Positions 2,135-56,330 of a DNA stretch of 64,000 nucleotides are shown here, one piece after another. The stretch comes from a virus, in IMG/VR virus record IMGVR_UViG_3300009514_000888, positions 1 to 64,000 of that record; one strand, given 5' to 3'. Made by a program: the position numbers and the translations under genes. Each line of letters begins with the position of its first letter. Position 1 is the stretch's first letter. The notes below the pieces were generated by a model. That model saw only the letters and a list, made by a program, of their open reading frames with translations. It searched no databases and was not told the origin of the DNA.

Positions 2135-2911
2135 ATGGGCGTAGACCCAGAAGAGTCCTTCATCGCGACAGCCGTCCTTGATAGAATGCCCCATTCGCTT
2201 CGCAATGTGGACCAGGCGATGTCAAAAACTTTATCCAGGAAGAAATCCTCGCGATTATGGCGTAACATTATGGATTATTGCACCAAAGGCACGCCTATGA
2301 TTAAGGGGAAGGATGCGTGGGTGCTGATCCTACTGTTGAAGAAGACGTTATCGGTTCCTGGCGATGTAGTTGAGATCGGATGTCATAAGGGCAGGACCAC
2401 AGTTGCTTTTCAGTCGTTGTTGAACTATTTTGGAGTTTCTAAGCAGATATATGCCTATGATTCGTTTCAAGGATTGCCCCCAGAACGCCCGGATGAATCG
2501 TATGATCTTTCGTATTATGAAAAAACGGTAACGGACAAGAGTTGGACGAAAGGCTCTACGCAGGGATTGTGTCATGCGACCATAGGCGACTTTGAAAAGA
2601 ATATGCTTCGAGCGGGTGTTGAAATGCCCATCGTTCGAGAGGGGTGGTTGGAGGATACGCTCGATAGTAGCATGCCGGATAGGATTAGCTTTGCTTTTTT
2701 CGATGTTGATATGTACTCGTCCACCAAGACAGCTCTGAATCGGCTGGTTCCCAGGATGAGCATAGGGGCGATAGGGTGCATACATGATTACTCATGGCAT
2801 CCTTGGCGAGAAGGGGTTCGGAGGGCGTGCCAGGAGGAGTTAAGATATTTAGTTAGACCTATTGGAGCATATGGTGTGTTCCAAATAACGCAAGGAGCCA
2901 ATCATGGCTAA
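2135..2911 (+). CDS. TylF/MycF-family (macrocin-O-) methyltransferase
   Basis: VPGDVVEIGCHKG, YAYDSFQGLP, FAFFDVDMYSST and IHDY motifs. Confidence 0.85.
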   Translation: MGVDPEESFIATAVLDRMPHSLRNVDQAMSKTLSRKKSSRLWRNIMDYCTKGTPMIKGKDAWVLILLLKKTLSVPGDVVEIGCHKGRTTVAFQSLLNYFGVSKQIYAYDSFQGLPPERPDESYDLSYYEKTVTDKSWTKGSTQGLCHATIGDFEKNMLRAGVEMPIVREGWLEDTLDSSMPDRISFAFFDVDMYSSTKTALNRLVPRMSIGAIGCIHDYSWHPWREGVRRACQEELRYLVRPIGAYGVFQITQGANHG

Positions 2912-3684
2912 GAAACGAAAACGAGATCGCAAGATTCATCACTTGGATAGGCGTCCCGTCGAGGGTAAAGCGCAGGAGTGTCTTTGACCCATCCATATCT
3001 CATGAACTGATTCTAGAGATTCAGTTCGGTACTGGTGGCGAAGACAGCAAGCTCTTTGTCGAAGACTTGGCCGCCGCCTACCTAAAATATGCCAATCGTT
3101 TAGGGTTGTCCGCTGAGCTGCTCGACAGCTTCGACGGTCATATTGCGCTCAAGATGAGCGGGAGAGGCGTCTGGAGGGCTTTCTGCCACGAGTCAGGCAA
3201 GCATGTCGTCCAGCGTGTGCCGCCCACAGAACGCAGCGGAAGGCGGCAAACGTCTGTTGTGGCGGTATCCATTTTGCCGATCTTTGAACAGAAGGCATCC
3301 CCTTTGCCTGATGCAGATATAGAGATTATGCCGTTTAGCAGCGGCGGGCCGGGCGGACAGCATCGCAACCGCAAGAAGAAAGCGATACGGATGCGGCATA
3401 AGCCTACGGGCATTCAGTCCATTGTAGCAACCAAGGATCGTCAATACAATCTTAAAGAGGCGCGCAAGATTCTGACTGCACGGGTGAATATGAGAAAGTT
3501 AGAATCTCATCGTAAGGATTACGATGAGTCCCGTAAGCAGCAATGGGGAGGCGGGGGACGAACAGGCAAGATCAGGACGTATAACTTTATCGAGTCGAGA
3601 GTTACTGATCACCGCACAGGGCGAAAAACCAGGGCCATTGATTTGGTCATGAGAGGACAGATTGATCTGATCCTGCCTGCCTAA
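2904..3684 (+). CDS. class I peptide chain release factor (RF1-like, lacking domain 1), expressed via +1 frameshift at 2982-2988; about 259 aa
   Basis: ATG 2904 after AAGGAG gives 27 codons to TGA 2985. The +1 frame from 2986 is open to 3684 and encodes LILEIQFGTGGEDS, HVVQRVPPTERSGRRQTS (PxT), GGPGGQH (GGQ) and IRTYNF..SRVTDHR. Confidence 0.85.
2974..2988 (+). promoter_or_regulatory. RF2/prfB-type programmed +1 frameshift signal
   Basis: AGGAG-TGT-CTT-TGA-C: internal SD, 3-nt spacer, CUU-UGA-C, the same geometry as the prfB site. Confidence 0.85.
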
Positions 3685-35567: not shown

Positions 35568-35582
35568 AATTGCCCCCGGTAG

Positions 35583-35619
35583 CTCCTCCTGGCGGCTTCG
35601 GTCGCTAGGGGGAGTTTTT
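35583..35619 (+). terminator. intrinsic terminator
   Basis: CTCCTCCTGGCG-GCTTCGGT-CGCTAGGGGGAG followed by a T run. Confidence 0.75.
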
Positions 35620-35667: not shown

Positions 35668-35695
35668 TTGACATTAAAGGTTCGGACGTTACTAT
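35668..35695 (+). promoter_or_regulatory. sigma70-like promoter upstream of the ncRNA array
   Basis: TTGACA-16 nt-TACTAT, ending about 15 nt before ncRNA unit 1. Confidence 0.65.
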
Positions 35696-35709
35696 GACGA
35701 ATAAGAAAG

Positions 35710-35773
35710 CTGGGGACTTGAACGTCAATACCGCGATCTTCGGATAGTTGGCATGACCTTTAACCTACCCCAG
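35710..35773 (+). ncRNA. Y-RNA-like unit 1 (small insert)
   Basis: CTGGGG/CCCCAG terminal stem; GGACTTGAACGTCAATACCG ... TTTAACCTACC. Confidence 0.6.
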
Positions 35774-35845
35774 ATACTATTTTGTCGCAAGTGCGATGTA
35801 GATGAACGCATGACAAGTGAATAATGGTGGTTTTGGGATGCCCAA

Positions 35846-35948
35846 CTACTAACAGAGGGTGGGGTCAGGACTTTCGCGTCAATTCCGTGATTAGACAATT
35901 TCACACCCTTTGACCCGCCCCCTACCTGATCCTATCCCCTGTTAGTAG
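35846..35948 (+). ncRNA. Y-RNA-like unit 2 (hairpin insert)
   Basis: CTACTAACAG/CTGTTAGTAG stem; GGACTTTCGCGTCAATTCCG ... TTTGACCCGCCCCCTACC. Confidence 0.65.
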
Positions 35949-35953
35949 AACAT

Positions 35954-36105
35954 AAACGGGAACTCTTGCGTCAATACCGAGTAGGCATTATAAACCCCAG
36001 GATACGGGTTCGAATCCCGTTCGGCGCTTTGCGTAGTTTAGTACGCGCCGATAGCTCAATTGGCAGAGCAGGAATCTCAACGTTGACCCAAACCTTATCC
36101 CGTTT
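35954..36105 (+). ncRNA. Y-RNA-like unit 3, YrlA-like (permuted tRNA-like insert)
   Basis: AAACGGGA/TCCCGTTT stem; conserved core; order is T arm, loop-closed acceptor stem (TCGGCGC/GCGCCGA), D arm. Confidence 0.75.
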
Positions 36106-36115
36106 TTTAATACTG

Positions 36116-36268
36116 ACCGCCGGAAGCGAATAGATAGGACTCGCGCGTTAATACCGTGACATAGCTCAATGGTAGAGCAACACCCCTAAAGGTGCGATTG
36201 AAGGTTCAAACCCTTCTGTCTCAACAGAACTTAACCCGCAACCTACCTATCTATTTCCTTCCGGCGGT
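36116..36268 (+). ncRNA. Y-RNA-like unit 4 (complete tRNA-like insert, 6-nt CCUAAA loop)
   Basis: ACCGCCGGAAG/CTTCCGGCGGT and ATAGATAGG/CCTATCTAT stems; conserved core; insert has GCTC/GAGC D arm, CACC/GGTG arm and GAAGG-TTCAAAC-CCTTC T arm. Confidence 0.7.
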
Positions 36269-36310
36269 TTTTTAATGCGCAGAAAAATCTATTAATTAGT
36301 TACATAGTGT

Positions 36311-36442: not shown

Positions 36443-36515
36443 GGCCGCGTAGCTCAGCGGAAGAGCAAAGCGTCTCTAAAACGCTAGGTCCAGGGTTCGA
36501 GTCCCTGCGCGGCTT
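36443..36515 (+). tRNA. amber suppressor tRNA (anticodon CTA)
   Basis: GGCCGCG/CGCGGCT acceptor, GCTC/GAGC D stem, AGCGT-CTCTAAA-ACGCT anticodon arm (CTA at 36476-36478), CAGGG-TTCGAGT-CCCTG T arm. Confidence 0.85.
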
Positions 36516-36516
36516 T

Positions 36517-36801
36517 ATGAATGTACGAGATTATCTTAAAGACGAGATTGTCAAGTACGTTGAGTCGGCTCAGGGCTGTAAGGCCACTGAAATTGCTCCT
36601 GCGATAATTGATGCCATCACCCCCACCCAAAGGGAGGATGGGACAATGGCTGCATTTCTAGAACTTCCATTTATAATTGAAGAGCTGATTGATGAAGGAC
36701 GGATTGTATCTGTCTGTTACTCATTGCCGAGTATGCCATACCGAGAAAAACAGTTTTTGTTACCTGCTGGCACATCAGTATTAGCAAGGAGCTTGCTATG
36801 A
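36517..36801 (+). CDS. hypothetical protein
   Basis: ORF starting right after the tRNA. Confidence 0.55.
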   Translation: MNVRDYLKDEIVKYVESAQGCKATEIAPAIIDAITPTQREDGTMAAFLELPFIIEELIDEGRIVSVCYSLPSMPYREKQFLLPAGTSVLARSLL

Positions 36802-37163
36802 AGAGTGTGGTAGCATTGATTATTCTGATCATTCCGTCTTTCGCATTTGCCGGTCAAAAGATTCATATTGGCATTTATTCTACCAGCGGCTTTCATCGCG
36901 CTCATTACCAGCCAGCTTATTATGGAAGCCGACCGTTCAGCTATACATCTTTCATCCGCATGCCTCCACCGCAGAAAACGCCGCCATTGGCTTACGATAA
37001 TAACAAGGCGGCATATGGGTATGTACAATCTCGTATCATTGCGGCGAAGCAAAGAGAAGTGGAGAAGCAGGAAAAGGCGAAGTGGCAGGATGACCAGCAG
37101 AGACGAAATGTAATTTGGGAACAGCAAAGGAATCAATTCGCTCGAAGTTGGATTTTTGATTAG
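36798..37163 (+). CDS. exported hypothetical protein
   Basis: Signal peptide ending AFA. Confidence 0.55.
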   Translation: MKSVVALIILIIPSFAFAGQKIHIGIYSTSGFHRAHYQPAYYGSRPFSYTSFIRMPPPQKTPPLAYDNNKAAYGYVQSRIIAAKQREVEKQEKAKWQDDQQRRNVIWEQQRNQFARSWIFD

Positions 37164-37175
37164 AAAGGAATTGAA

Positions 37176-37778
37176 ATGTCATTGATTCTGAAAGCGGCGC
37201 GACTGGCACGGAAAGCTCATGGGGGACAGACCCGCAAACATAATGGGCTACCATATGATGCTCATGTTTCTCGCGTTGCGGGTCGGGTAGCCACTCATGA
37301 CATCGCCTGCGAAGAAAGTGTAGCGGCGGCCTTTCTTCATGACGTGAAAGAGGACACGTCATATACATTCGATGATATCCTTACTGAATTACACGATGAG
37401 CGGGCAGAAGATGTGCTCGATCTCGTCCGTGAATTGACCAATCCGTCCAAGGGTTCTCGCTTATCCAGGACGGAACGTAAGTGCATGGATAGAGATCATC
37501 TATCTAATGTCAGCTATGAGGCGAAGGTTATAAAACTCATTGACCGCTGCGATAACCTAATGGAAATACTGTCTAACTGGACGAGGCTGACTATAGACGA
37601 AAAAAACTTTGTTCAGCTCTATGTCGAAGAATCTATATTATTGGCGAAAGTGATAGGACATGCGGATGAACGTTTGGAAGAGGAACTGATGATGTATGCC
37701 CATCAGTTGCGAAAGTTGGTTCGCCAAGAAGTCTCGCATCGGCGAACTTCTCCGGACTCTATCGAAACTGCATCATAG
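37176..37778 (+). CDS. HD-domain hydrolase, RelA/SpoT-hydrolase (Mesh1/SAH)-like
   Basis: AHGGQTRK..GLPY..H, AAFLHDVKEDT and IKLIDRCDN motifs. Confidence 0.85.
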   Translation: MSLILKAARLARKAHGGQTRKHNGLPYDAHVSRVAGRVATHDIACEESVAAAFLHDVKEDTSYTFDDILTELHDERAEDVLDLVRELTNPSKGSRLSRTERKCMDRDHLSNVSYEAKVIKLIDRCDNLMEILSNWTRLTIDEKNFVQLYVEESILLAKVIGHADERLEEELMMYAHQLRKLVRQEVSHRRTSPDSIETAS

Positions 37779-37794
37779 GTAGATAGGTAGATAG

Positions 37795-38013
37795 GTGATA
37801 ACGATGTTTCAACCAAACAACATTGAGACGTTCATGGGGGGAACTTTTGGGCTGCCTAAGCATGGGATCAAGACAGTGGGTGACTTGCGTATACTGCTTC
37901 GATCCTGGGCGCAAGAGGTAGATGATTGGGGCGACGACGATACCCCGATCAGCGAAGTAGCGATTGTCAAAGACAGAGTCAGCGTGACTCTTGCGGCAGG
38001 TATTGTTCAGTGA
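37795..38013 (+). CDS. hypothetical protein
   Basis: Small ORF. Confidence 0.45.
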   Translation: MITMFQPNNIETFMGGTFGLPKHGIKTVGDLRILLRSWAQEVDDWGDDDTPISEVAIVKDRVSVTLAAGIVQ

Positions 38014-38039: not shown

Positions 38040-38402
38040 ATGGGATTCTCGTAGGTTGACAATTCGGTTTCGTATCTTTACGTTATCACACGTAGGGACT
38101 TGCCATTTCCTGTCTGCGCCGTTCAGGCGTGTCATGCCGCAATCGAAGCGGCCAGGTTCATTCCCCCATAGGTAGAGCATCCTCATCTCGTTTTGTGCGC
38201 CGTCAGAGATGAGGAGCGACTTGAACGCGCAGCTGAGAAGCTGGAGCGTAAGGGTATCCGTCTGCGCCGATGGCGAGAGCCGGATATCGATCAGTTAACC
38301 GCAATTGCGACAGAGCCTATTTCAGGCGATGCGCGTCGTTACTTCAAAGACTTCCAACTTCTTAAAGGAGACCACGATGGCTACGCTCACACAGTATCGT
38401 AA
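38040..38402 (+). CDS. Pth2-like peptidyl-tRNA hydrolase with two in-frame TAG codons (38052-38054, 38169-38171)
   Basis: AAGGAG RBS then MGFS*VDNSVSYLYVITRRDLPFPVCAVQACHAAIEAARFIPP*VEHPHLVLCAV...REPDIDQLTAIATEPI; the Pth2-family motifs lie on both sides of the second amber. Confidence 0.75.
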
Positions 38403-38803: not shown

Positions 38804-38835
38804 TAGCTGGCGGAGGCCAGCGTCTCCGCCAGCTA
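38804..38835. terminator. hairpin terminator between convergent genes
   Basis: TAGCTGGCGGAG/CTCCGCCAGCTA perfect 12-bp stem followed by TTGTTTTT. Confidence 0.7.
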
Positions 38836-39846: not shown

Positions 39847-40551
39847 ATGAGCTTGTCATCTTTATTTTCGCGCGAGCATTACGAATCCTGGACACTAAGA
39901 GTTGCATCTAGCCTTGACGAAGTTTACAGTGCTTGGAGGTTGGTATACCGCGAATATCGCTCATTTGGGTTTCTGCATGAGAACAAATATAAGATTGTTG
40001 TTCCTCGGCATTTCAATCATGATTCGTTGGTCATACTGACCAGTATCTACCACGTAGCCATCTCAACATTAACTTGTTCTCTGGATAGCGAACATGGCTT
40101 GACTTTGGACACAGTCTTCCGGGATCAGATAGATCAACTACGAGATGACGGGAGGCATGTCGCAGAAATAGGGATGTTTGCTAGTGTTCGGGGGCATGAG
40201 GCTTATCGGTCCTTGGCCAGAGACTTGCTGGAAATGATGCGCTACTCGTACTATTACTTACGATACCAAAAAATAGATGATATTGTGGTTGGAGTTCACC
40301 CAGACCATGTATCATTTTATAAGGATGTATTTGGTCTGGACATATTTAGCGATGAGAGATCGTATGCCAGATATAGCAACAATCCTGTGGTTTTGATGAG
40401 AGCTGGGCTTCAAAACTGGTCTAAAAAAGATCATCCTGTAGTTAGATACTACGGCGACAATCGCATTCCTGAGTTACAATTCAAACATCGATATGACTTC
40501 AATCCAGTAGAGGTTCGCGATTCCGCCATAGGAAAATTCCTGGACTCTTAG
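39847..40551 (+). CDS. GNAT-fold N-acyl amino acid synthase (FeeM-like)
   Basis: AWRLVYREY...G, VAEIG.FA, VGVHP.H..FY and NNPVVL motifs. Confidence 0.7.
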   Translation: MSLSSLFSREHYESWTLRVASSLDEVYSAWRLVYREYRSFGFLHENKYKIVVPRHFNHDSLVILTSIYHVAISTLTCSLDSEHGLTLDTVFRDQIDQLRDDGRHVAEIGMFASVRGHEAYRSLARDLLEMMRYSYYYLRYQKIDDIVVGVHPDHVSFYKDVFGLDIFSDERSYARYSNNPVVLMRAGLQNWSKKDHPVVRYYGDNRIPELQFKHRYDFNPVEVRDSAIGKFLDS

Positions 40552-44906: not shown

Positions 44907-47900
44907 GTGCCTGACATATCAGTAAAGAAACGAAATGGTCGTCTCGAAAAACTCAATTTAGACAAAATCAATCGTTGTGTTCAGCGCGCTTGCGATGACG
45001 TAGAGGCGGTTTCGGCGAGCGAGGTTATACTGGATGCCCAGGTGCAGCTTTATAACAAGATTACCACAACCGAAATTGATAAAGCGCTTATTTTATCCGC
45101 CAGAAGTAAAATCGAGAAAGACCCCAACTATTCCACGGTTGCCGCTCGACTACTCCTCAATACCATATACAAAGAAGTCTTTGGAGAAGGCGTCGATAGC
45201 GATGTCTTCGACATGCAATATCACAAGTCGTTCGTGACAAATCTCAAGAATTTGGTTAAAGTTGGGCGTATTGATGCAGAGCTGTTGAAATTCGACCTGA
45301 ATCGCCTTGCGAAGGCGCTGGATACGCGCAGGGATCATTTGTGGAACTATTTGGGTATCCAGACGGTCTACGACAGATACCTGTTACACATCAACGGACG
45401 GCGTATGGAGACTCCGCAGGGATTTTGGATGCGAGTTGCGATGGGACTGGCGATTAACGAAGAAGATCGGGAAACCAAGGCTATCGAATTCTATGATGCT
45501 CTATCTCGCAATTTATGCCTTTCTGGCACGCCGACATTGTTTAATAGCGGCACCGTTCATCCTCAGCTGAGTAGTTGTTATCTTTCAAGCGTTGACGACT
45601 CGATTAACGGTATTTTCGGAACGATACATAACCAAGCATGTTTGTCCAAATTTGCTGGCGGACTGGGAGTAGACTGGACTCCTATCCGCGGGACCGGCTC
45701 TTATATTCGAGGAACCAATGGCAAAAGCCAGGGCTTAGTGCCGTGGCTTAAAATCTTTAACGATACGTTGGTCGCAGTCAATCAATGCTTTGATCCTGAG
45801 ACACATGTATTTACGGGCAAGGGTATAAAGCAAATGAAAGATGTTGAGAAAGGCGATTTTATACTTTCCGGAAATGGCGAACAATGCGAAGTTGAACAGG
45901 TGATGTTTTATGAGCAGAATGATAGCATGGTCGAAATCGATGTTGAGCATTCTGTTGACAAGATGAGGGTCACTTCTGGTCATCCGCTTTTGGCTTTACG
46001 CAATGTTCCAGTAGAAGTTGAGAACGATAGGACTTATAGGAGGTTGGATAAGGGAATGATCGCGACGGAATGGGTCGAGGCAGGCGACTTGAAACAGGGC
46101 GATTATGTCGCATTCCCCATACCGCAAGAGACATTGAAGGTGGATGGATTTGCGGATGAAGATGCTTATCTGTATGGATTGATGCTAGGAGACGACCATG
46201 CCTCCATAGATCAAGACGAACGTGGAGTATCCTTTCGCCAAGATACCGCAAATGGCAGTTTGCCGTTTGATTATGATGATTTATATGACAAAGATCATAA
46301 CAAAAGAATATCTGCGAAATTCATGCACCTTCCTAGACCTCAGTCTTTGCAGATGATCAAGGGATTGCTGGATTCGGATGAAAATCTGTCTATAGGAGAC
46401 GAGATAATCTTTGGCAATGCTTCTAGATTACTAGTGGAAGGCATGAGGTATCAGCTTCTTCGTATGGGGATACCGTCTGCTGGTAATAAAAGAGAAAGAA
46501 ATTATGATCCTGAATTTCCTTGCAGCGATGGCCCAGCGGTCGCCGCGAAAGGAACGACGGTTGTTTATGATTTAAGAATTCCAGCTGTTCAGGAGATTGC
46601 AGATTTGGTAGGGTCTAAAGTGTTGACTAAGCCAAACTGGTTACGTGTTCATAACTTGATATTAAGTAGAGTGAAGTCTGTAAATCCAATGGACAAATTG
46701 CCAGTGGTAGTTGATCTGAAGATAAAACGAGATGAGACGTACGTGACCAGCTCTGGATTAGCTCATAATGGCGGTAGGCGGAAGGGGGCAGGATGCGCTT
46801 ATTTAGAGACATGGCATTGCGATCTTGAGGACTTTTTGGAGTTACGTAAAAATACCGGCGATGATCGTCGGCGTTGTCATGATATGCATATGGCCAACTG
46901 GATTCCTGATGAATTTATGCGCCGCGTTCAGGGAGATGAGCAGTGGTATCTTTTCAGCCCAAGCGACACTCCCGATCTACATGATCTATTTGGGAAAGAG
47001 TTCGATAAGGCATACAAGCTATACTGCAAGCAGGCGGATGCTGGGGAAATCCCCAGTAGGATAGTTCCCGCCAAACATCTTTGGAAGAAGATGCTACGGT
47101 CTTTATATGAAACTGGACACCCGTGGATGACCTGGAAAGACCCGTCTAACATTCGCTATCCCAATCAGCATGTGGGGACGGTTCATTCGTCTAACTTGTG
47201 TACCGAAATCCTCTTGCACACTAAGGCGACTAAGTATGGAGACACAGGCGAGGTTGAGGAAATCGGAGAGACAGCTGTGTGTAACTTAAGTAGTCTCAAC
47301 TTGGCAGCTCATATCGAAAATGGTAATATGAACTGGGATTTGCTTCAAAAAACCATTGGCACAGCAATGCGAATGCTCGATAATGTCATTGATATTAACT
47401 ACTATCCGACCAAAGAATCTCGCAAGTCCAATACGACTCATCGCCCTGTCGGACTGGGAATTATGGGCTTTCATGACATGCTTCATCTGTTGGGTATCAC
47501 TTATGATTCAAATGAGGCCGTTGAACTTTCTGGGCAGGTGCAAGAGTTTGTTTCGTACCACGCCATTTTGAACTCTAGCAAGTTGGCCAAGGAGCGCGGG
47601 ACGTACCGCACTTACGAAGGCTCGACCTGGGATCAGGGGTTGCTGCCTATCGACACTTATCGAGAGTTGATCAAATATCGTGGCAATGAAGATGCTACAA
47701 TAGTTCAACGGCTGGATTGGAGTGAAGTTAAAGATCACGTAGCGCAGCATGGTATGCGTAACTCGAATACGATGGCAATTGCTCCAACCGCTACAATTAG
47801 TTATATCGCCGGATGCTCGCAAAGTATCGAGCCAGACTTTGGCGTTCTTTACGTTTATACGACGCTATCCGGCGAATTTACAATGGCGAACCGCTTCTTC

Positions 47901-48371
47901 GCAGACGATATGAAAAGGCTAGGATTGTGGGGCAAGGACTTGATCGATGCTCTTAAGGTTGTGGATGGAGATATCGATCAACTGAACCTCCCTGAGGATA
48001 TTAAGCACAAGTATAAGTCAGCTTTTCATATGCCACCTGAGCGGCTCATCGACTGCGCTGCCGCCAGGCAACAGTGGATTGATCAGGGGCAGAGTCTTAA
48101 CCTATATGCTGATACGACCAGCATGAAGTACCTGCATGATATGTATATGTATGCCTGGCAAAAATGCCTGAAAACAACCTATTATTTGCGGGCGAAGGCA
48201 GCCAGCCGCATTGAGAAATCTACTGGCTCTAAAAATGGCAATGGGTATCTCAAGGTAAATGGCAATGGCAATGGCAATGGCCAAGAGCCGCAGGAGAACG
48301 TATTGACTGATGGCGATGTTTGTTCGACGGAATCTCGCATGCGCGGCGAGATTTGTGAAGCATGTCAATAA
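44907..48371 (+). CDS. nrdA: ribonucleotide reductase alpha subunit with ATP cone and intein
   Basis: VKKRNG ATP cone, TPTLFN, SSCYL, NLCTEI, CNLSS, APTAT, KTTYY and a C-terminal Cys pair. Confidence 0.95.
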   Translation: MPDISVKKRNGRLEKLNLDKINRCVQRACDDVEAVSASEVILDAQVQLYNKITTTEIDKALILSARSKIEKDPNYSTVAARLLLNTIYKEVFGEGVDSDVFDMQYHKSFVTNLKNLVKVGRIDAELLKFDLNRLAKALDTRRDHLWNYLGIQTVYDRYLLHINGRRMETPQGFWMRVAMGLAINEEDRETKAIEFYDALSRNLCLSGTPTLFNSGTVHPQLSSCYLSSVDDSINGIFGTIHNQACLSKFAGGLGVDWTPIRGTGSYIRGTNGKSQGLVPWLKIFNDTLVAVNQCFDPETHVFTGKGIKQMKDVEKGDFILSGNGEQCEVEQVMFYEQNDSMVEIDVEHSVDKMRVTSGHPLLALRNVPVEVENDRTYRRLDKGMIATEWVEAGDLKQGDYVAFPIPQETLKVDGFADEDAYLYGLMLGDDHASIDQDERGVSFRQDTANGSLPFDYDDLYDKDHNKRISAKFMHLPRPQSLQMIKGLLDSDENLSIGDEIIFGNASRLLVEGMRYQLLRMGIPSAGNKRERNYDPEFPCSDGPAVAAKGTTVVYDLRIPAVQEIADLVGSKVLTKPNWLRVHNLILSRVKSVNPMDKLPVVVDLKIKRDETYVTSSGLAHNGGRRKGAGCAYLETWHCDLEDFLELRKNTGDDRRRCHDMHMANWIPDEFMRRVQGDEQWYLFSPSDTPDLHDLFGKEFDKAYKLYCKQADAGEIPSRIVPAKHLWKKMLRSLYETGHPWMTWKDPSNIRYPNQHVGTVHSSNLCTEILLHTKATKYGDTGEVEEIGETAVCNLSSLNLAAHIENGNMNWDLLQKTIGTAMRMLDNVIDINYYPTKESRKSNTTHRPVGLGIMGFHDMLHLLGITYDSNEAVELSGQVQEFVSYHAILNSSKLAKERGTYRTYEGSTWDQGLLPIDTYRELIKYRGNEDATIVQRLDWSEVKDHVAQHGMRNSNTMAIAPTATISYIAGCSQSIEPDFGVLYVYTTLSGEFTMANRFFADDMKRLGLWGKDLIDALKVVDGDIDQLNLPEDIKHKYKSAFHMPPERLIDCAAARQQWIDQGQSLNLYADTTSMKYLHDMYMYAWQKCLKTTYYLRAKAASRIEKSTGSKNGNGYLKVNGNGNGNGQEPQENVLTDGDVCSTESRMRGEICEACQ
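45786..46769 (+). mobile_element. intein (328 aa, degenerate LAGLIDADG) in NrdA, Gly at +1
   Basis: AVNQ|CFDPETHV...VTSGHP...YLYGLMLGD...KGLLDSD...GLAHN|GGRRKG. Confidence 0.9.
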
Positions 48372-52769: not shown

Positions 52770-55700
52770 ATGGCGAAGAGGAAGTCCAGTAGAGCCGGAG
52801 AATTCCTGTCTTCTCTTAGAGAGAGCCTGAAAGGGGATGGAGAGTCTAATATACCAGATATTATCTCCTTCGTAGAGGATGAGAGATACCTGGGATTGCC
52901 GCATGGACATAATCCTATTAATCTGTTTCCTGCCCAAAAATTGACGCTCAAGGCGTTTTATAGAGGCTCTGTCGGAAACGAAAATCTAGAAATTACCGAT
53001 GAAGATTATGCGTTGTGTCGCAAGATGGGGCTGACGGATCATGATGATCGTGGTAATCTGCTCGAAAAGATTCAAAGCAATAGCATCTTTAGAGAGCTGG
53101 TGCTGGTTTGGGGGCGTCGGTGCGTCTCAGAAGATATGGAAATAATCGATCCGGATACAGGCACCGTTTGGACATTTGGAGAATTGTGGGATCATGGCAG
53201 GAGACGTATAGACTCCTGGACTTATGATGAAAATAGCAGAAAAATGAGGATCATCAAAGACGCAGATATCCTGTTTCAGGGTAAAAGAGAAGTTTTCGAA
53301 TTAGAAACTAAAAGCGGGCATAAAATAGAAGCTACCTTAAATCACCCGTTCTTGACTAAACATGGATGGAAAAAACTAGAAGATTTAGAAATCAACAAAG
53401 ATGCTGTCGCATTGTGCACTGAACAGCCATTCTTCGGCAAGTCAGATGCTATCAGCGAAGATGAAGCTGCACTGCAAAGCATTGGATTTGCAGGAGATAA
53501 GCAGAGAGAGTTTCCGGACAGACCATATGCCCCTACCAAGCGGAGAGCAATTAATCAGTCATGCCTAAAGTTTTCCAAGATTAATTCTATCAAGCCCATT
53601 GGGCGTAAACGAACATTTGACCTTTCTGTTAGCGATAAAAAATCGTTGCAAAACTTTACTACACAAGGGTTTGTAATCTCGAACTCAGGTAAGGATTTTA
53701 GTGGTAGTATTATTGCTGCCTATGAGGCCATGAAGTTATTGGAGGTTCCCGGCGGCGATCCGTATGCTTATTATAACATCGGTTCTGCTGTTCCCATCTC
53801 AATTCTTACCGTTGCTACGTCTAAGCCCCAGGCCAGGATTGCGTTCCAGGAGATTAGGGAAAAAGTTATTTACAGCCAATACTTTCAGGACAAATACCTG
53901 CCAGAGGGCATTGAAACTGAGGCTATTCACCTTTTGACCCCCAAGGACAAGAAAGATAACCAGGAATTTGCCGCCAAGGGATTACCCTTAAAGAAAGGAT
54001 CAGTTTGTATTGAAGTTGGTCACTCTAACTCCGACTCCTTGCTTGGTAAAGGCTGCATTGTTTTGATTCTTGATGAGGTTGCTTCTTATAAGAACACTGG
54101 CGGGTCATCATCCGGAGACCGTATCTATACTGCTTTGCAACCAACCTTGAATACCTATTATCGCCGCATCCCTATTGAGGACGAATTTGGCAACATCAAA
54201 ATGGATGAGGATGGCAAGGCATGCTATAATATTGAGTATCATGGTAAGATCATCTCGATTTCATCTCCCAGAGGCAAGGAAGGTAAGTTCTATGATTTGT
54301 GGCAGGGAGCGGCTGGCGCTCCTGAAAGACTTGCCTGCCGTCTCCCGACTTGGGAAGTAAATAACCAGCATAGCTATGACTCCTTGCGAGCCGCTAATAG
54401 CGAAATGAGCGAGGAAGTCTTTATGATGGAATTTGGTGCCGAGTTTTCAGGCACAGCAGGTGAGGCGTTCTTCGAAAGAGACCAGGTTGAGCGATGCTTT
54501 AGGGGGCATGTGTTCATTGAGAATCGTTTAATTGGAGAGCCAGGAAAGGTTTATTTTGCCCATCTCGACCCTGCCACGAATAGCCACAATTATGCTTTGG
54601 TGGTTTTGCATAAAGAGATGTTTATCAATCGCGTAGACAAGAAATCGGATTTCTATGTGGTGGTGGATCACATCAAAACATGGCATCCTGGGCAGGACAA
54701 GCCTATCGATATTGATGCAGTTGATGAATACATGATTCAATTGAAGCGCCGATTTCATTTGGGAGTTGTAACGTATGACCATTGGAACTGTACTAGTCCT
54801 GAATCCTGGATTTTTTCCTCTAAAGGGCTGGTCCAGGTCAAGGATTTGAAATTAGGAGATCATGTGCAGGGGCAGGGCGGACAACTTAATAAAGTGATGT
54901 CATTAGGATATAAAAGGGATGTTAAGGGATATAGAGTCCGAACAAAATTTGGTTATGAATTACAGGCTAATGATGTTCATCCTGTTTTGGATAAAGAAAA
55001 TGGCTTTGTTCAATTGAAAGACCTGTCAGTTGGATCGACTGTTTGTCTTAAGGATTTCGAAGGCATTTTTGGAGAAGAAGACGCCGTAAATGAAGCGGCT
55101 ATGTCTGGGTATTTGATTTCAGAAGGTCATTTTGCTAGTAAAAGAAATAGCGTAGAATTCACGACTACATCAGATGACAATTTACATGATTATTGTAAAC
55201 TTGCAATATCAGTGGTTGGGGATGAGCCAAGAATTTATGTCAAAAAGTTCAAAAATCATTGGAAAGATTCGTACAATGCTAGATACATGCAGTCTGATCA
55301 TGTAGAAAAGATTATGGGATTATGTGATTGCGGATTATCTCACGATAAGAAAATCCCACAGTTTGTAATGAAAGGCAACAAACGAACTGTTGCTGCATTT
55401 TTGTCCGCTTTGTACGAAGGGGACGGGACTGTAATAAAAGATATCAACTGTCTTTCTGTACAATATGACACTGTTAGCGAGGAATTGTCTAAGCAAGTCC
55501 AGATGCTTTTGTTAGCATTTGGAATTAAATCTAGTAGGAAATATTTCGAAAACAAGTATTTCAAAGATAAGAAATGTCCATATTATAGAGTTAGTTTGTA
55601 TGGATACAATATATTTGCTTTTCATAACAATATTGGTTTTAGGTCAAAAGAAAAGAGAGATAGGTTGGATAATGTTGTTGATTTGCAAGGTTCTGACAAA

Positions 55701-56330
55701 AGATATAAGTACAAAAGGCAGGCTAAGGGATTAAGAAAATCATCTAAAAAGAAGTCTCGTAGTCAATACATGTGGGATAAGGTTGTATCCATAGAGGCGG
55801 TTAGTACAGACATTGTTCATCTAGAAGTTGATGGAGACCATACATATGTCTCTAATGGGATAGTGTCCCATAATAGTCAACAGAGCATTCTGAGGCTGAG
55901 AAAGCACGGCATTCCAGCGAGAATGACCCGGTATAATCGACAATACAAGATGGAAATCTATTCTGAGCTAGAATCCTTGGTGAATTCAGGCCGTATCAAG
56001 ATACCTTATTATAGTCTTTTGCATGATGAAATGGTTGGTTTGCAAAGAAAGTATACCGATAATGGGTTTAAGGTGTATGCCCAGCAAGAGGGAGATGGCT
56101 GTCATACGGATGATGTAGTTGATGCCCTTGCTGGTGCCGCATTTATGGCAATGTCAGTCGATAACAAGAGGCTACCCAAGGGCAAGCTGGCGCATTCCGG
56201 AAATCCGTCAAGCGCAGCGAACAATATCGTTTGGCGCAACATGCAGGGCGGAGTTTACGGCGTAGGCAGCGGGCAATCCGTGGCCAACCAGTTGGAAAGA
56301 AGGAATTCCTGGCCACGATATAAAAGGTAA
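52770..56330 (+). CDS. terL: terminase large subunit with two inteins
   Basis: Spliced Walker A WGRR|SGK, Walker B LILDEVA, ISSPRG, nuclease AHLDPA, DD.VDA.AGA. Confidence 0.88.
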   Translation: MAKRKSSRAGEFLSSLRESLKGDGESNIPDIISFVEDERYLGLPHGHNPINLFPAQKLTLKAFYRGSVGNENLEITDEDYALCRKMGLTDHDDRGNLLEKIQSNSIFRELVLVWGRRCVSEDMEIIDPDTGTVWTFGELWDHGRRRIDSWTYDENSRKMRIIKDADILFQGKREVFELETKSGHKIEATLNHPFLTKHGWKKLEDLEINKDAVALCTEQPFFGKSDAISEDEAALQSIGFAGDKQREFPDRPYAPTKRRAINQSCLKFSKINSIKPIGRKRTFDLSVSDKKSLQNFTTQGFVISNSGKDFSGSIIAAYEAMKLLEVPGGDPYAYYNIGSAVPISILTVATSKPQARIAFQEIREKVIYSQYFQDKYLPEGIETEAIHLLTPKDKKDNQEFAAKGLPLKKGSVCIEVGHSNSDSLLGKGCIVLILDEVASYKNTGGSSSGDRIYTALQPTLNTYYRRIPIEDEFGNIKMDEDGKACYNIEYHGKIISISSPRGKEGKFYDLWQGAAGAPERLACRLPTWEVNNQHSYDSLRAANSEMSEEVFMMEFGAEFSGTAGEAFFERDQVERCFRGHVFIENRLIGEPGKVYFAHLDPATNSHNYALVVLHKEMFINRVDKKSDFYVVVDHIKTWHPGQDKPIDIDAVDEYMIQLKRRFHLGVVTYDHWNCTSPESWIFSSKGLVQVKDLKLGDHVQGQGGQLNKVMSLGYKRDVKGYRVRTKFGYELQANDVHPVLDKENGFVQLKDLSVGSTVCLKDFEGIFGEEDAVNEAAMSGYLISEGHFASKRNSVEFTTTSDDNLHDYCKLAISVVGDEPRIYVKKFKNHWKDSYNARYMQSDHVEKIMGLCDCGLSHDKKIPQFVMKGNKRTVAAFLSALYEGDGTVIKDINCLSVQYDTVSEELSKQVQMLLLAFGIKSSRKYFENKYFKDKKCPYYRVSLYGYNIFAFHNNIGFRSKEKRDRLDNVVDLQGSDKRYKYKRQAKGLRKSSKKKSRSQYMWDKVVSIEAVSTDIVHLEVDGDHTYVSNGIVSHNSQQSILRLRKHGIPARMTRYNRQYKMEIYSELESLVNSGRIKIPYYSLLHDEMVGLQRKYTDNGFKVYAQQEGDGCHTDDVVDALAGAAFMAMSVDNKRLPKGKLAHSGNPSSAANNIVWRNMQGGVYGVGSGQSVANQLERRNSWPRYKR
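53121..53684 (+). mobile_element. mini-intein (188 aa) in the TerL Walker A motif
   Basis: GRR|CVSEDM...ATLNHPFL...TFDLSV...FVISN|SGK. Confidence 0.9.
54789..55874 (+). mobile_element. intein (362 aa) with LAGLIDADG endonuclease in the TerL nuclease domain
   Basis: DHWN|CTSPESW...GYLISEG...FLSALYEGDG...IVSHN|SQQ. Confidence 0.92.

Follow-up and report, generated by a model that had tools for sequence, protein, structure and literature searches.

A probable amber suppressor tRNA beside a stop-interrupted Pth2-like gene in a standard-code phage

A CUA tRNA in a phage that keeps TAG as a stop

Jumbo phages with the standard genetic code have been found time and again to carry amber or opal suppressor tRNAs for which no target is known. 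The locus described here raises the question of what such a tRNA reads in a phage that ends its own genes with the same codon. The window, the 64 kb that open a single 186,298-bp IMG/VR contig, carries on its plus strand, at 36443-36515, a 73-nt tRNA gene to which ARAGORN assigns the anticodon CTA. A preliminary description had called it a clean cloverleaf, and on this the ARAGORN call, the Rfam tRNA model (RF00005, 58.6 bits against a gathering score of 29, E 4e-10, matched in full at positions 1-71) and the minimum-free-energy fold, which is the cloverleaf itself, agree. The acceptor stem has 7 bp, with G1-U72 and the discriminator U73 read from the sequence, and the combination of G18G19, the T-loop GTTCGAG and a 5-nt variable loop places the tRNA in class I. 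Both ARAGORN and the Rfam alignment put CUA at positions 34-36 of the anticodon loop CUCUAAA (C32 U33 C U A A37 A38), the placement that defines an amber suppressor, and in A36-A37-A38 the tRNA has the MiaA (i6A37) determinant, as is usual for readers of U-initial codons. No CCA is encoded. The linker between the D stem and the anticodon stem is 2 nt long, with an extra unpaired A after position 26; this base and G1-U72 are the only oddities in what is otherwise a canonical elongator tRNA.

ARAGORN labels any tRNA with a CUA anticodon tRNA-Pyl, a molecule marked by a 3-nt variable loop, a 6-bp anticodon stem, a very small D loop without G18G19 and an atypical T loop. That identity was rejected here on account of the 5-nt variable loop, the 5-bp anticodon stem, G18G19 and the GTTCGAG T loop. 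The 186-kb contig contains only seven tRNA-like genes, all of them in the window: two Cys, three Ser, an aberrant element with a 6-nt loop at 36155-36225 and the CUA tRNA. No near-identical copy of the latter was found in IMG/VR, nor any DNA match to GenBank phages. Suppressor tRNA units assisted by theta or HDV-like ribozymes have been described in which a small HDV-like ribozyme directly flanks the tRNA (PMC10879173); in the window, no Rfam family except tRNA reached its gathering score (Rfam 15, in which theta ribozymes are possibly not included).

The preliminary description had also held that the charged amino acid cannot be read off a tRNA with G1-U72 and U73, and this stands. The two features together fit no class-I isoacceptor one mutation away from CUA, and the nearest relatives among 177 phage tRNAs are other suppressors rather than a single isotype. 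An assignment by similarity was accordingly rejected, as the other suppressors are followed by Ile, Lys and Arg tRNAs with no isotype signal. The class I structure argues against the bacterial Tyr, Leu and Ser types, and U73 would fit the Gly or Cys types better than Gln, Lys, Glu or Trp. Synthetases of the GlnRS/GluRS and TrpRS/TyrRS families are not encoded in the contig.

Whether TAG is a sense codon in this phage was assessed by comparing coding density under code 11 and under TAG reassignment, as had been proposed. Greedy non-overlapping ORF coverage of the 186 kb is 0.931 in both cases, and the controls in which TGA or TAA was read through gave the same coverage as code 11. TAG terminates 45 of the 203 raw ORFs and 32 of the 171 that pass a codon-usage filter, the latter being spread along the whole contig, so that its share of the stops, ~19-22%, is not depleted. 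Proteins of 1787 and 1245 aa are among those that end in TAG, and each of the five TAG stops listed earlier (2092, 6029, 30777, 37778, 40551) closes a real ORF. The earlier statement that no long core gene is interrupted by TAG holds for the 186-kb contig, in which no long gene with an internal TAG was found; under code 11, the terminase (1186 aa) and the portal (1330 aa) are each a single unbroken frame. The marks of a code 15-type genome, namely interrupted conserved genes, a gain in density and rare TAG stops, are thus absent. Genome-wide recoding was rejected, since treating TAG, TGA or TAA as sense brings no gain in coverage over code 11, and by the same measure of ORF coverage 19 related loci gave no sign of TAG recoding. 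Wholesale reassignment of TAG is excluded for the available 186 kb, which CheckV estimates at ~39% of the phage genome; the recoding tests span these 186 kb, with ~61% of the roughly 480-kb genome unseen.

A Pth2-like gene with two in-frame amber codons

The statement about interrupted genes needs qualifying in view of one short gene, which the preliminary description had missed. It begins 1.5 kb downstream of the CUA tRNA on the same strand (Table 1), where an AAGGAG Shine-Dalgarno sequence precedes ATG GGA TTC TCG TAG, and its frame, which contains two TAG codons, ends in TAA. When both are read through, the product matches the Pfam family PTH2 (PF01981) with 26.7 bits against a cut-off of 23, and a profile built from eight homologs matches solved Pth2 structures with E values of 2.6e-5 and 2.8e-4. 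From the first TAG to the invariant VQACHAAIE motif, the frame of this gene offers no other start codon (ATG, GTG or TTG), and a functional Pth2-like protein would therefore need both UAG codons to be decoded. Both fall at positions with varied residues in the homologs, so that any inserted amino acid would do. The second TAG has a counterpart in the same place in only one other locus, L011. Two components are thus found together in an otherwise standard-code genome, and are referred to below as the module: a Pth2-like gene with an in-frame stop, the gate, 2-8 codons past its ATG, and within a few kb of it a suppressor tRNA that matches the gate.

Table 1. The CUA tRNA, the gated gene and other features of the window
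Feature	Position	Strand	Basis and remarks
RF1-type release factor	3067..3684	+	Pfam RF-1 70.6 bits, PCRF 47.3 bits; PPT (PxT-type) and GGQ motifs
Terminator-like hairpin, upstream end of putative unit	35581-35616		consensus scan, pattern match only
Promoter-like site	35668-35695		consensus scan, pattern match only
tRNA(CUA)	36443-36515	+	ARAGORN; Rfam RF00005
orf94	36517-36801	+	ORF list; between tRNA(CUA) and Pth2-like gene
orf121	36798-37163	+	ORF list; signal-peptide-like N-terminus
HD_4 phosphohydrolase	37176-37778	+	Pfam/PHROGs; ordinary RBS and ATG, ungated
orf69	37804-38013	+	ORF list
Pth2-like gene, 120 codons	38040..38402	+	sequence; TAG-read-through ORF; Pfam PF01981
Gate 1, TAG as codon 5 (MGFS-TAG-V), then G	38052..38054	+	sequence
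Gate 2, TAG as codon 44, in variable loop directly before conserved EHPH	38169..38171	+	sequence; homolog alignment
Strong terminator-like hairpin	38804..38835	+	consensus scan, pattern match only

Between the tRNA and the gated gene lie four ORFs. The ATG of orf94 begins 2 nt past the discriminator base of the tRNA, so that processing of the tRNA 3' end would give a nearly leaderless mRNA, unless the true start is further downstream. Five codons on from the TAG of orf121, and in its frame, the HD_4 gene begins, so that amber suppression at this TAG would yield a fusion protein; the HD_4 gene itself ends in TAG, followed by a second TAG and then TGA within 16 codons. A gated HD gene was nonetheless rejected, because the HD_4 gene has an ordinary Shine-Dalgarno sequence and ATG directly after the orf121 TAG. 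No relatives of the HD_4 gene were found in viral contigs.

The consensus scan called no plus-strand terminator between the tRNA and the Pth2-like gene, and the terminator-like and promoter-like elements upstream, with the strong hairpin downstream, bracket a possible unit of the two. A long stem with a T-run at ~36119-36275, upstream of the tRNA, could stop transcription before it. The same stretch belongs to an array of tRNA-like elements (window 35690-36275), preceded by a repeated GCGTCAATACCG-like motif. One unit of the array is permuted, its T arm and 3' acceptor strand (~35985-36030) lying ahead of its 5' acceptor strand and D arm (~36048-36085), and the element with the 6-nt loop is enclosed by a stem of 36119-36140 with 36250-36275, plus the T-run. 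The idea that this last tRNA-like RNA is a paralogue of the suppressor was rejected, as among 206 tRNAs ordered by their similarity to this RNA the suppressor comes only 48th. Just downstream of the tRNA and the Pth2-like gene, window 39847-40551 encodes a FeeM-type N-acyl amino acid synthase (PF21926, 122 bits).

A possible antagonist of the suppressor is encoded near the start of the window. The RF1-type release factor contains the sole RF-1 domain of the contig and, judging from its domains and motifs, would terminate at UAG and UAA and so oppose suppression. Its N-terminal part extends further upstream with no start codon in that frame (window 2904-3684), and a nearby ATG frame ends at CTT-TGA-C, an arrangement that fits a +1 frameshift gate.

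Gates and suppressors at homologous loci

Homologs of the Pth2-like gene were gathered from IMG/VR, metagenomes and GenBank phages and represent ~45 distinct loci. In ~35 distinct homologs, an in-frame stop follows 2-8 codons after a Shine-Dalgarno-preceded ATG, and in the closest relatives (L052-L071 and window 38040-38054) the residues directly before this stop are G-F-(T/S/L/R). TAG gates pair with CUA tRNAs in all loci with enough flanking sequence. In L070 a TAG gate has as its neighbour an ochre-type UUA tRNA, and a UUA anticodon can wobble-read UAG. The same stretch (L070:5612-5947) also carries a tRNA with a 9-nt loop containing CUCUAAA, called Arg-TCT by ARAGORN, and a further aberrant tRNA. 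In two loci both partners differ, a TGA gate being accompanied by a UCA tRNA 333 nt upstream in L010 (MK-TGA) and 163 nt upstream in L069 (MST-TGA). No gate was found beside a suppressor of the wrong type among the loci examined.

A further variant is found in two GC-rich loci, L012 and L013, where the leader reads MSGFT-TGA-A, with TGA-A at codon 6, and the Shine-Dalgarno-preceded ATG is out of frame, so that a +1 shift is needed. In L012 (9865-10318), the anticodon loop of a tRNA 136 nt upstream of the Pth2-like gene has 8 nt (ACUUCAAA) and includes UUCA, complementary to UGAA, and reading TGAA as one step restores an intact Pth2-like homolog of 121 residues. An identical copy of this stretch is present in L013/L021/L022. 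The TGAA gate and the tRNA with the 8-nt loop are a candidate for a natural pair of quadruplet codon and quadruplet-reading tRNA.

When only loci flanked on either side by 3 kb or more are counted, a compatible suppressor accompanies 19 of 19 gated genes and 3 of 8 ungated ones (Fisher p 7e-4, a value that ignores phylogenetic relatedness). Three ungated homologs, those of L025, L035 and L041, have adjoining CUA tRNAs. The loci share only the Pth2-like gene, their other neighbours being different, and their suppressor tRNAs are diverse, with differing acceptor stems and discriminators; the link between gene and tRNA is thus functional rather than that of an inherited synteny block. The base on the 3' side of the TAG gates is a purine in 33 of 33 cases, compared with 17 of 32 genuine TAG stops in the phage studied here. 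In E. coli, a 3' purine favours suppression by tRNAs, and the purine after all 33 gates suggests a context tuned for read-through.

This covariation bears on whether the CUA tRNA decodes at all. It might instead be a decaying gene, a decoy for host nucleases that target tRNAs or a further cargo of the adjacent Ro60-like/Y-RNA module, and it does lie 170 nt past an array of tRNA-like Y-type RNAs, with its odd linker and lack of an encoded CCA. Such a role is nonetheless scarcely credible for a tRNA with a full cloverleaf, all universal features and a 7-nt loop, set against a neighbouring mimic of which it is no paralogue and which has a 6-nt loop and a mismatched acceptor stem; moreover, the covariation of codon and anticodon across loci makes sense only if the tRNAs decode.

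The module is also present in cultured phages with the standard code, namely GAP32, ME3, BF, Arash and XacN1. Cronobacter phage GAP32 (L045, gate MAQ-TAG) has an annotated Sup-tRNA 3.1 kb downstream, Acinetobacter phage ME3 (L046, MT-TAG) a CUA tRNA 0.5 kb upstream, Serratia phage BF (L048, MTH-TAG) a tRNA-Sup 3.6 kb downstream, and Salmonella phage Arash (L051, ML-TAG) a CUA tRNA 1.3 kb downstream that is annotated as tRNA-Phe; the 595-kb record LR756511.1 (L050) contains the module as well. In the GenBank annotations of these five records, the gated gene is truncated or split, which is a point for annotation in general. In the Xanthomonas phages XacN1 (ORF364) and Xoo-sp13, the Pth2-like domain is the C-terminus of a longer ORF, and a few codons before the annotated start there is in each an unannotated, in-frame, Shine-Dalgarno-preceded leader: ATG-AAG-TAG (MK-TAG; L044:3440-3470) in XacN1 and ATG-AAG-AAG-TAG (MKK-TAG; L049:4440-4470) in Xoo-sp13. 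The notion that the N-terminal domain of XacN1 ORF364 is an HD domain was rejected, having no Pfam support and a BLASTP E value of 0.34.

A second alternative places the tRNA at the beginning of a reassignment of TAG, or treats it as a relic of one. The TAG codons of the Pth2-like gene would then be merely incidental, read as sense, and the 61% of the genome outside the contig might be recoded. Borges et al. report that standard-code relatives of recoded phages acquired suppressor tRNAs, and consider that a standard-code phage with a suppressor may be on its way to recoding (10.1101/2021.08.26.457843); the contig, moreover, is just 39% complete. Against this, TAG is not depleted as a stop, the terminase and portal genes are uninterrupted although late genes are the class usually affected by recoding, and complete cultured phages with the standard code have the module. 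The early position of the gate is kept in distant homologs, and its switches between TAG, TGA and TGAA go along with the tRNA, neither of which drift predicts. The release factor encoded here is moreover of the RF1 type, whereas TAG-recoded phages are accompanied by RF2 and TGA-recoded ones by RF1 (10.1101/2021.08.26.457843). This alternative is therefore very unlikely, and the earlier proposal that the suppressor is regulatory rather than part of a code reassignment gains support from the standard code, the double-amber Pth2-like gene and a gate stop that covaries with the suppressor anticodon.

A proposed gate for one gene and its relation to known systems

The CUA tRNA is probably a working amber suppressor and the key of a translational gate on a single gene, rather than an agent of code reassignment. 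It is inferred to be transcribed, provided with CCA and charged by a host synthetase, and would then compete with RF1 at the gates. Ribosomes starting at 38040 would run into two UAGs, at codons 5 and 44. Where the suppressor is lacking, RF1 would release a 4-residue peptide, or the short peptidyl-tRNA would drop off; where it is charged, it would read both stops and allow the 120-residue Pth2-like enzyme to be made, with UAG elsewhere in the genome staying a normal stop. With two gates in series, the output of Pth2-like protein would rise roughly as the square of the ratio of suppressor to RF1 activity. TAG ends about a fifth of the phage genes, which a strong suppressor would extend, so the activity must be modest or limited by context. 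A phage with its own RF1-type factor as well as a suppressor may have both sides of this contest tuned. The preferred reading, held with low confidence, makes the gate a read-out of how suppressor and RF1 are balanced at the time: the hydrolase would be made in proportion to read-through and would recycle tRNAs lost by drop-off or read-through, or feed back on the suppressor. More tentative still, and doubtful at present, is the extension of this reading to a circuit of suppressor tRNA, frameshift-gated RF1-type factor and amber-gated hydrolase that sets and senses UAG read-through. In this reading the tRNA and its gate would be a natural orthogonal pair of key and lock, re-keyed several times in evolution from UAG to UGA and even to a four-base UGAA codon.

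Other targets were sought in the contig by scoring codons at all 264 TAGs with open flanks. The TAG-interrupted genes that this suggested (37161, 82478, 115240, 184178 and others) were all rejected, being same-frame neighbours with their own RBS and ATG, and no Pfam or PHROG domain spans a TAG junction in the contig. Other early gates were rejected too, the chance-like hits in the contig numbering 6 for TAG, 11 for TGA and 10 for TAA, and in a leader-motif scan of the 186 kb only 38040 opens into a long frame. Nor is there a signal of backup stops after TAG-terminated genes, where the median extension is 19 codons compared with 21.5 after TAA and 22 after TGA.

These results weigh on the possibility that the main job of the tRNA lies elsewhere, in low-level UAG read-through of phage or host genes that would yield C-terminally extended isoforms or sabotage the host, with the Pth2-like gate only a governor or sensor. 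At least 32 phage ORFs end in TAG, a single TAG joins orf121 in frame to the HD_4 gene, TAG-ATG joins 183764-184180 in frame to 184181-185482, and the CUA tRNAs beside three ungated homologs mean that the tRNA may have further targets. Same-frame neighbours joined by TAG are, however, no commoner than chance and each has its own RBS and ATG, no Pfam domain crosses such a junction in the contig, and extensions past TAG are neither shorter nor longer than those past TAA or TGA. In XacN1, which has two CUA tRNAs, read-through of 18 amber stops likewise revealed no similarity and no target (PMC5852040). A main role outside the Pth2-like gene is thus unlikely.

As in the phage described here, the codon read by the suppressors of the jumbo phages XacN1, RsoM2USA, Atu_ph07, GAP32 and BF stays a normal stop. 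The papers on RsoM2USA (CUA) and Atu_ph07 (UCA) count stop codons and name no targets, as is also true of the literature on XacN1, whereas here a concrete Pth2-like target is seen. The code-change module of suppressor tRNA, aminoacyl-tRNA synthetase and release factor (Borges et al.; code 15 crAss-like and Lak phages) resembles the present one in that a suppressor licenses stop-bearing genes and in having been proposed as a regulatory switch. It differs in scale, as phages recoded in that manner have many recoded late, structural and lysis genes, rare TAG, and RF2 where TAG is the recoded codon, while this phage has one small gated gene, TAG at the end of ~20% of its genes, an RF1-type factor and an unchanged coding density. 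A second likeness is to prfB, the gene for RF2, in which synthesis of the factor also depends on a release-factor contest at an early in-frame stop. There, however, the stop is UGA and is bypassed by slippage of the ribosome in a +1 frameshift, instead of by a dedicated tRNA, the TGAA gate of L012 with its 8-nt-loop tRNA being the exception; and the product is the release factor itself, not a Pth2-like hydrolase for which feedback is only a possibility.

The minigenes of lambda bar, mini-ORFs of 2-8 codons with a stop, are a classical source of peptidyl-tRNA drop-off and hence of Pth substrate, and every gated homolog likewise starts with a mini-ORF of 2-8 codons ending in a stop. Unlike in lambda bar, the mini-ORF here continues in frame into the hydrolase gene and would be opened by a suppressor tRNA. 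A link between the gate leader and peptidyl-tRNA drop-off, drawn from this analogy, is speculative. In the literature on phage Pth2 or peptidyl-tRNA hydrolase and suppressor tRNAs, no description of the gate was found, and a dedicated key for a single gated gene, re-keyed to UGA and to a quadruplet, appears to be new. It would represent a natural case of a suppressor tRNA dedicated to the control of a single gene, with decoding of a quadruplet as the means in one lineage, and a conserved gated gene whose stop covaries with the tRNA gives the suppressors of standard-code jumbo phages a concrete, testable function. Among the carriers of the module are cultured phages of Cronobacter, Serratia, Acinetobacter, Salmonella and Xanthomonas, which bring the proposal within reach of the bench.

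Some genes of the contig are unusual in size. The terminase (window 52770-56330), with its 1186 aa, and the portal (68046-72038 of the contig), with 1330 aa and an HNH-like tail, are both unusually long, and the large subunit of ribonucleotide reductase (window 44907-48371) has an insert of ~330 residues between two matched parts that is possibly an intein.
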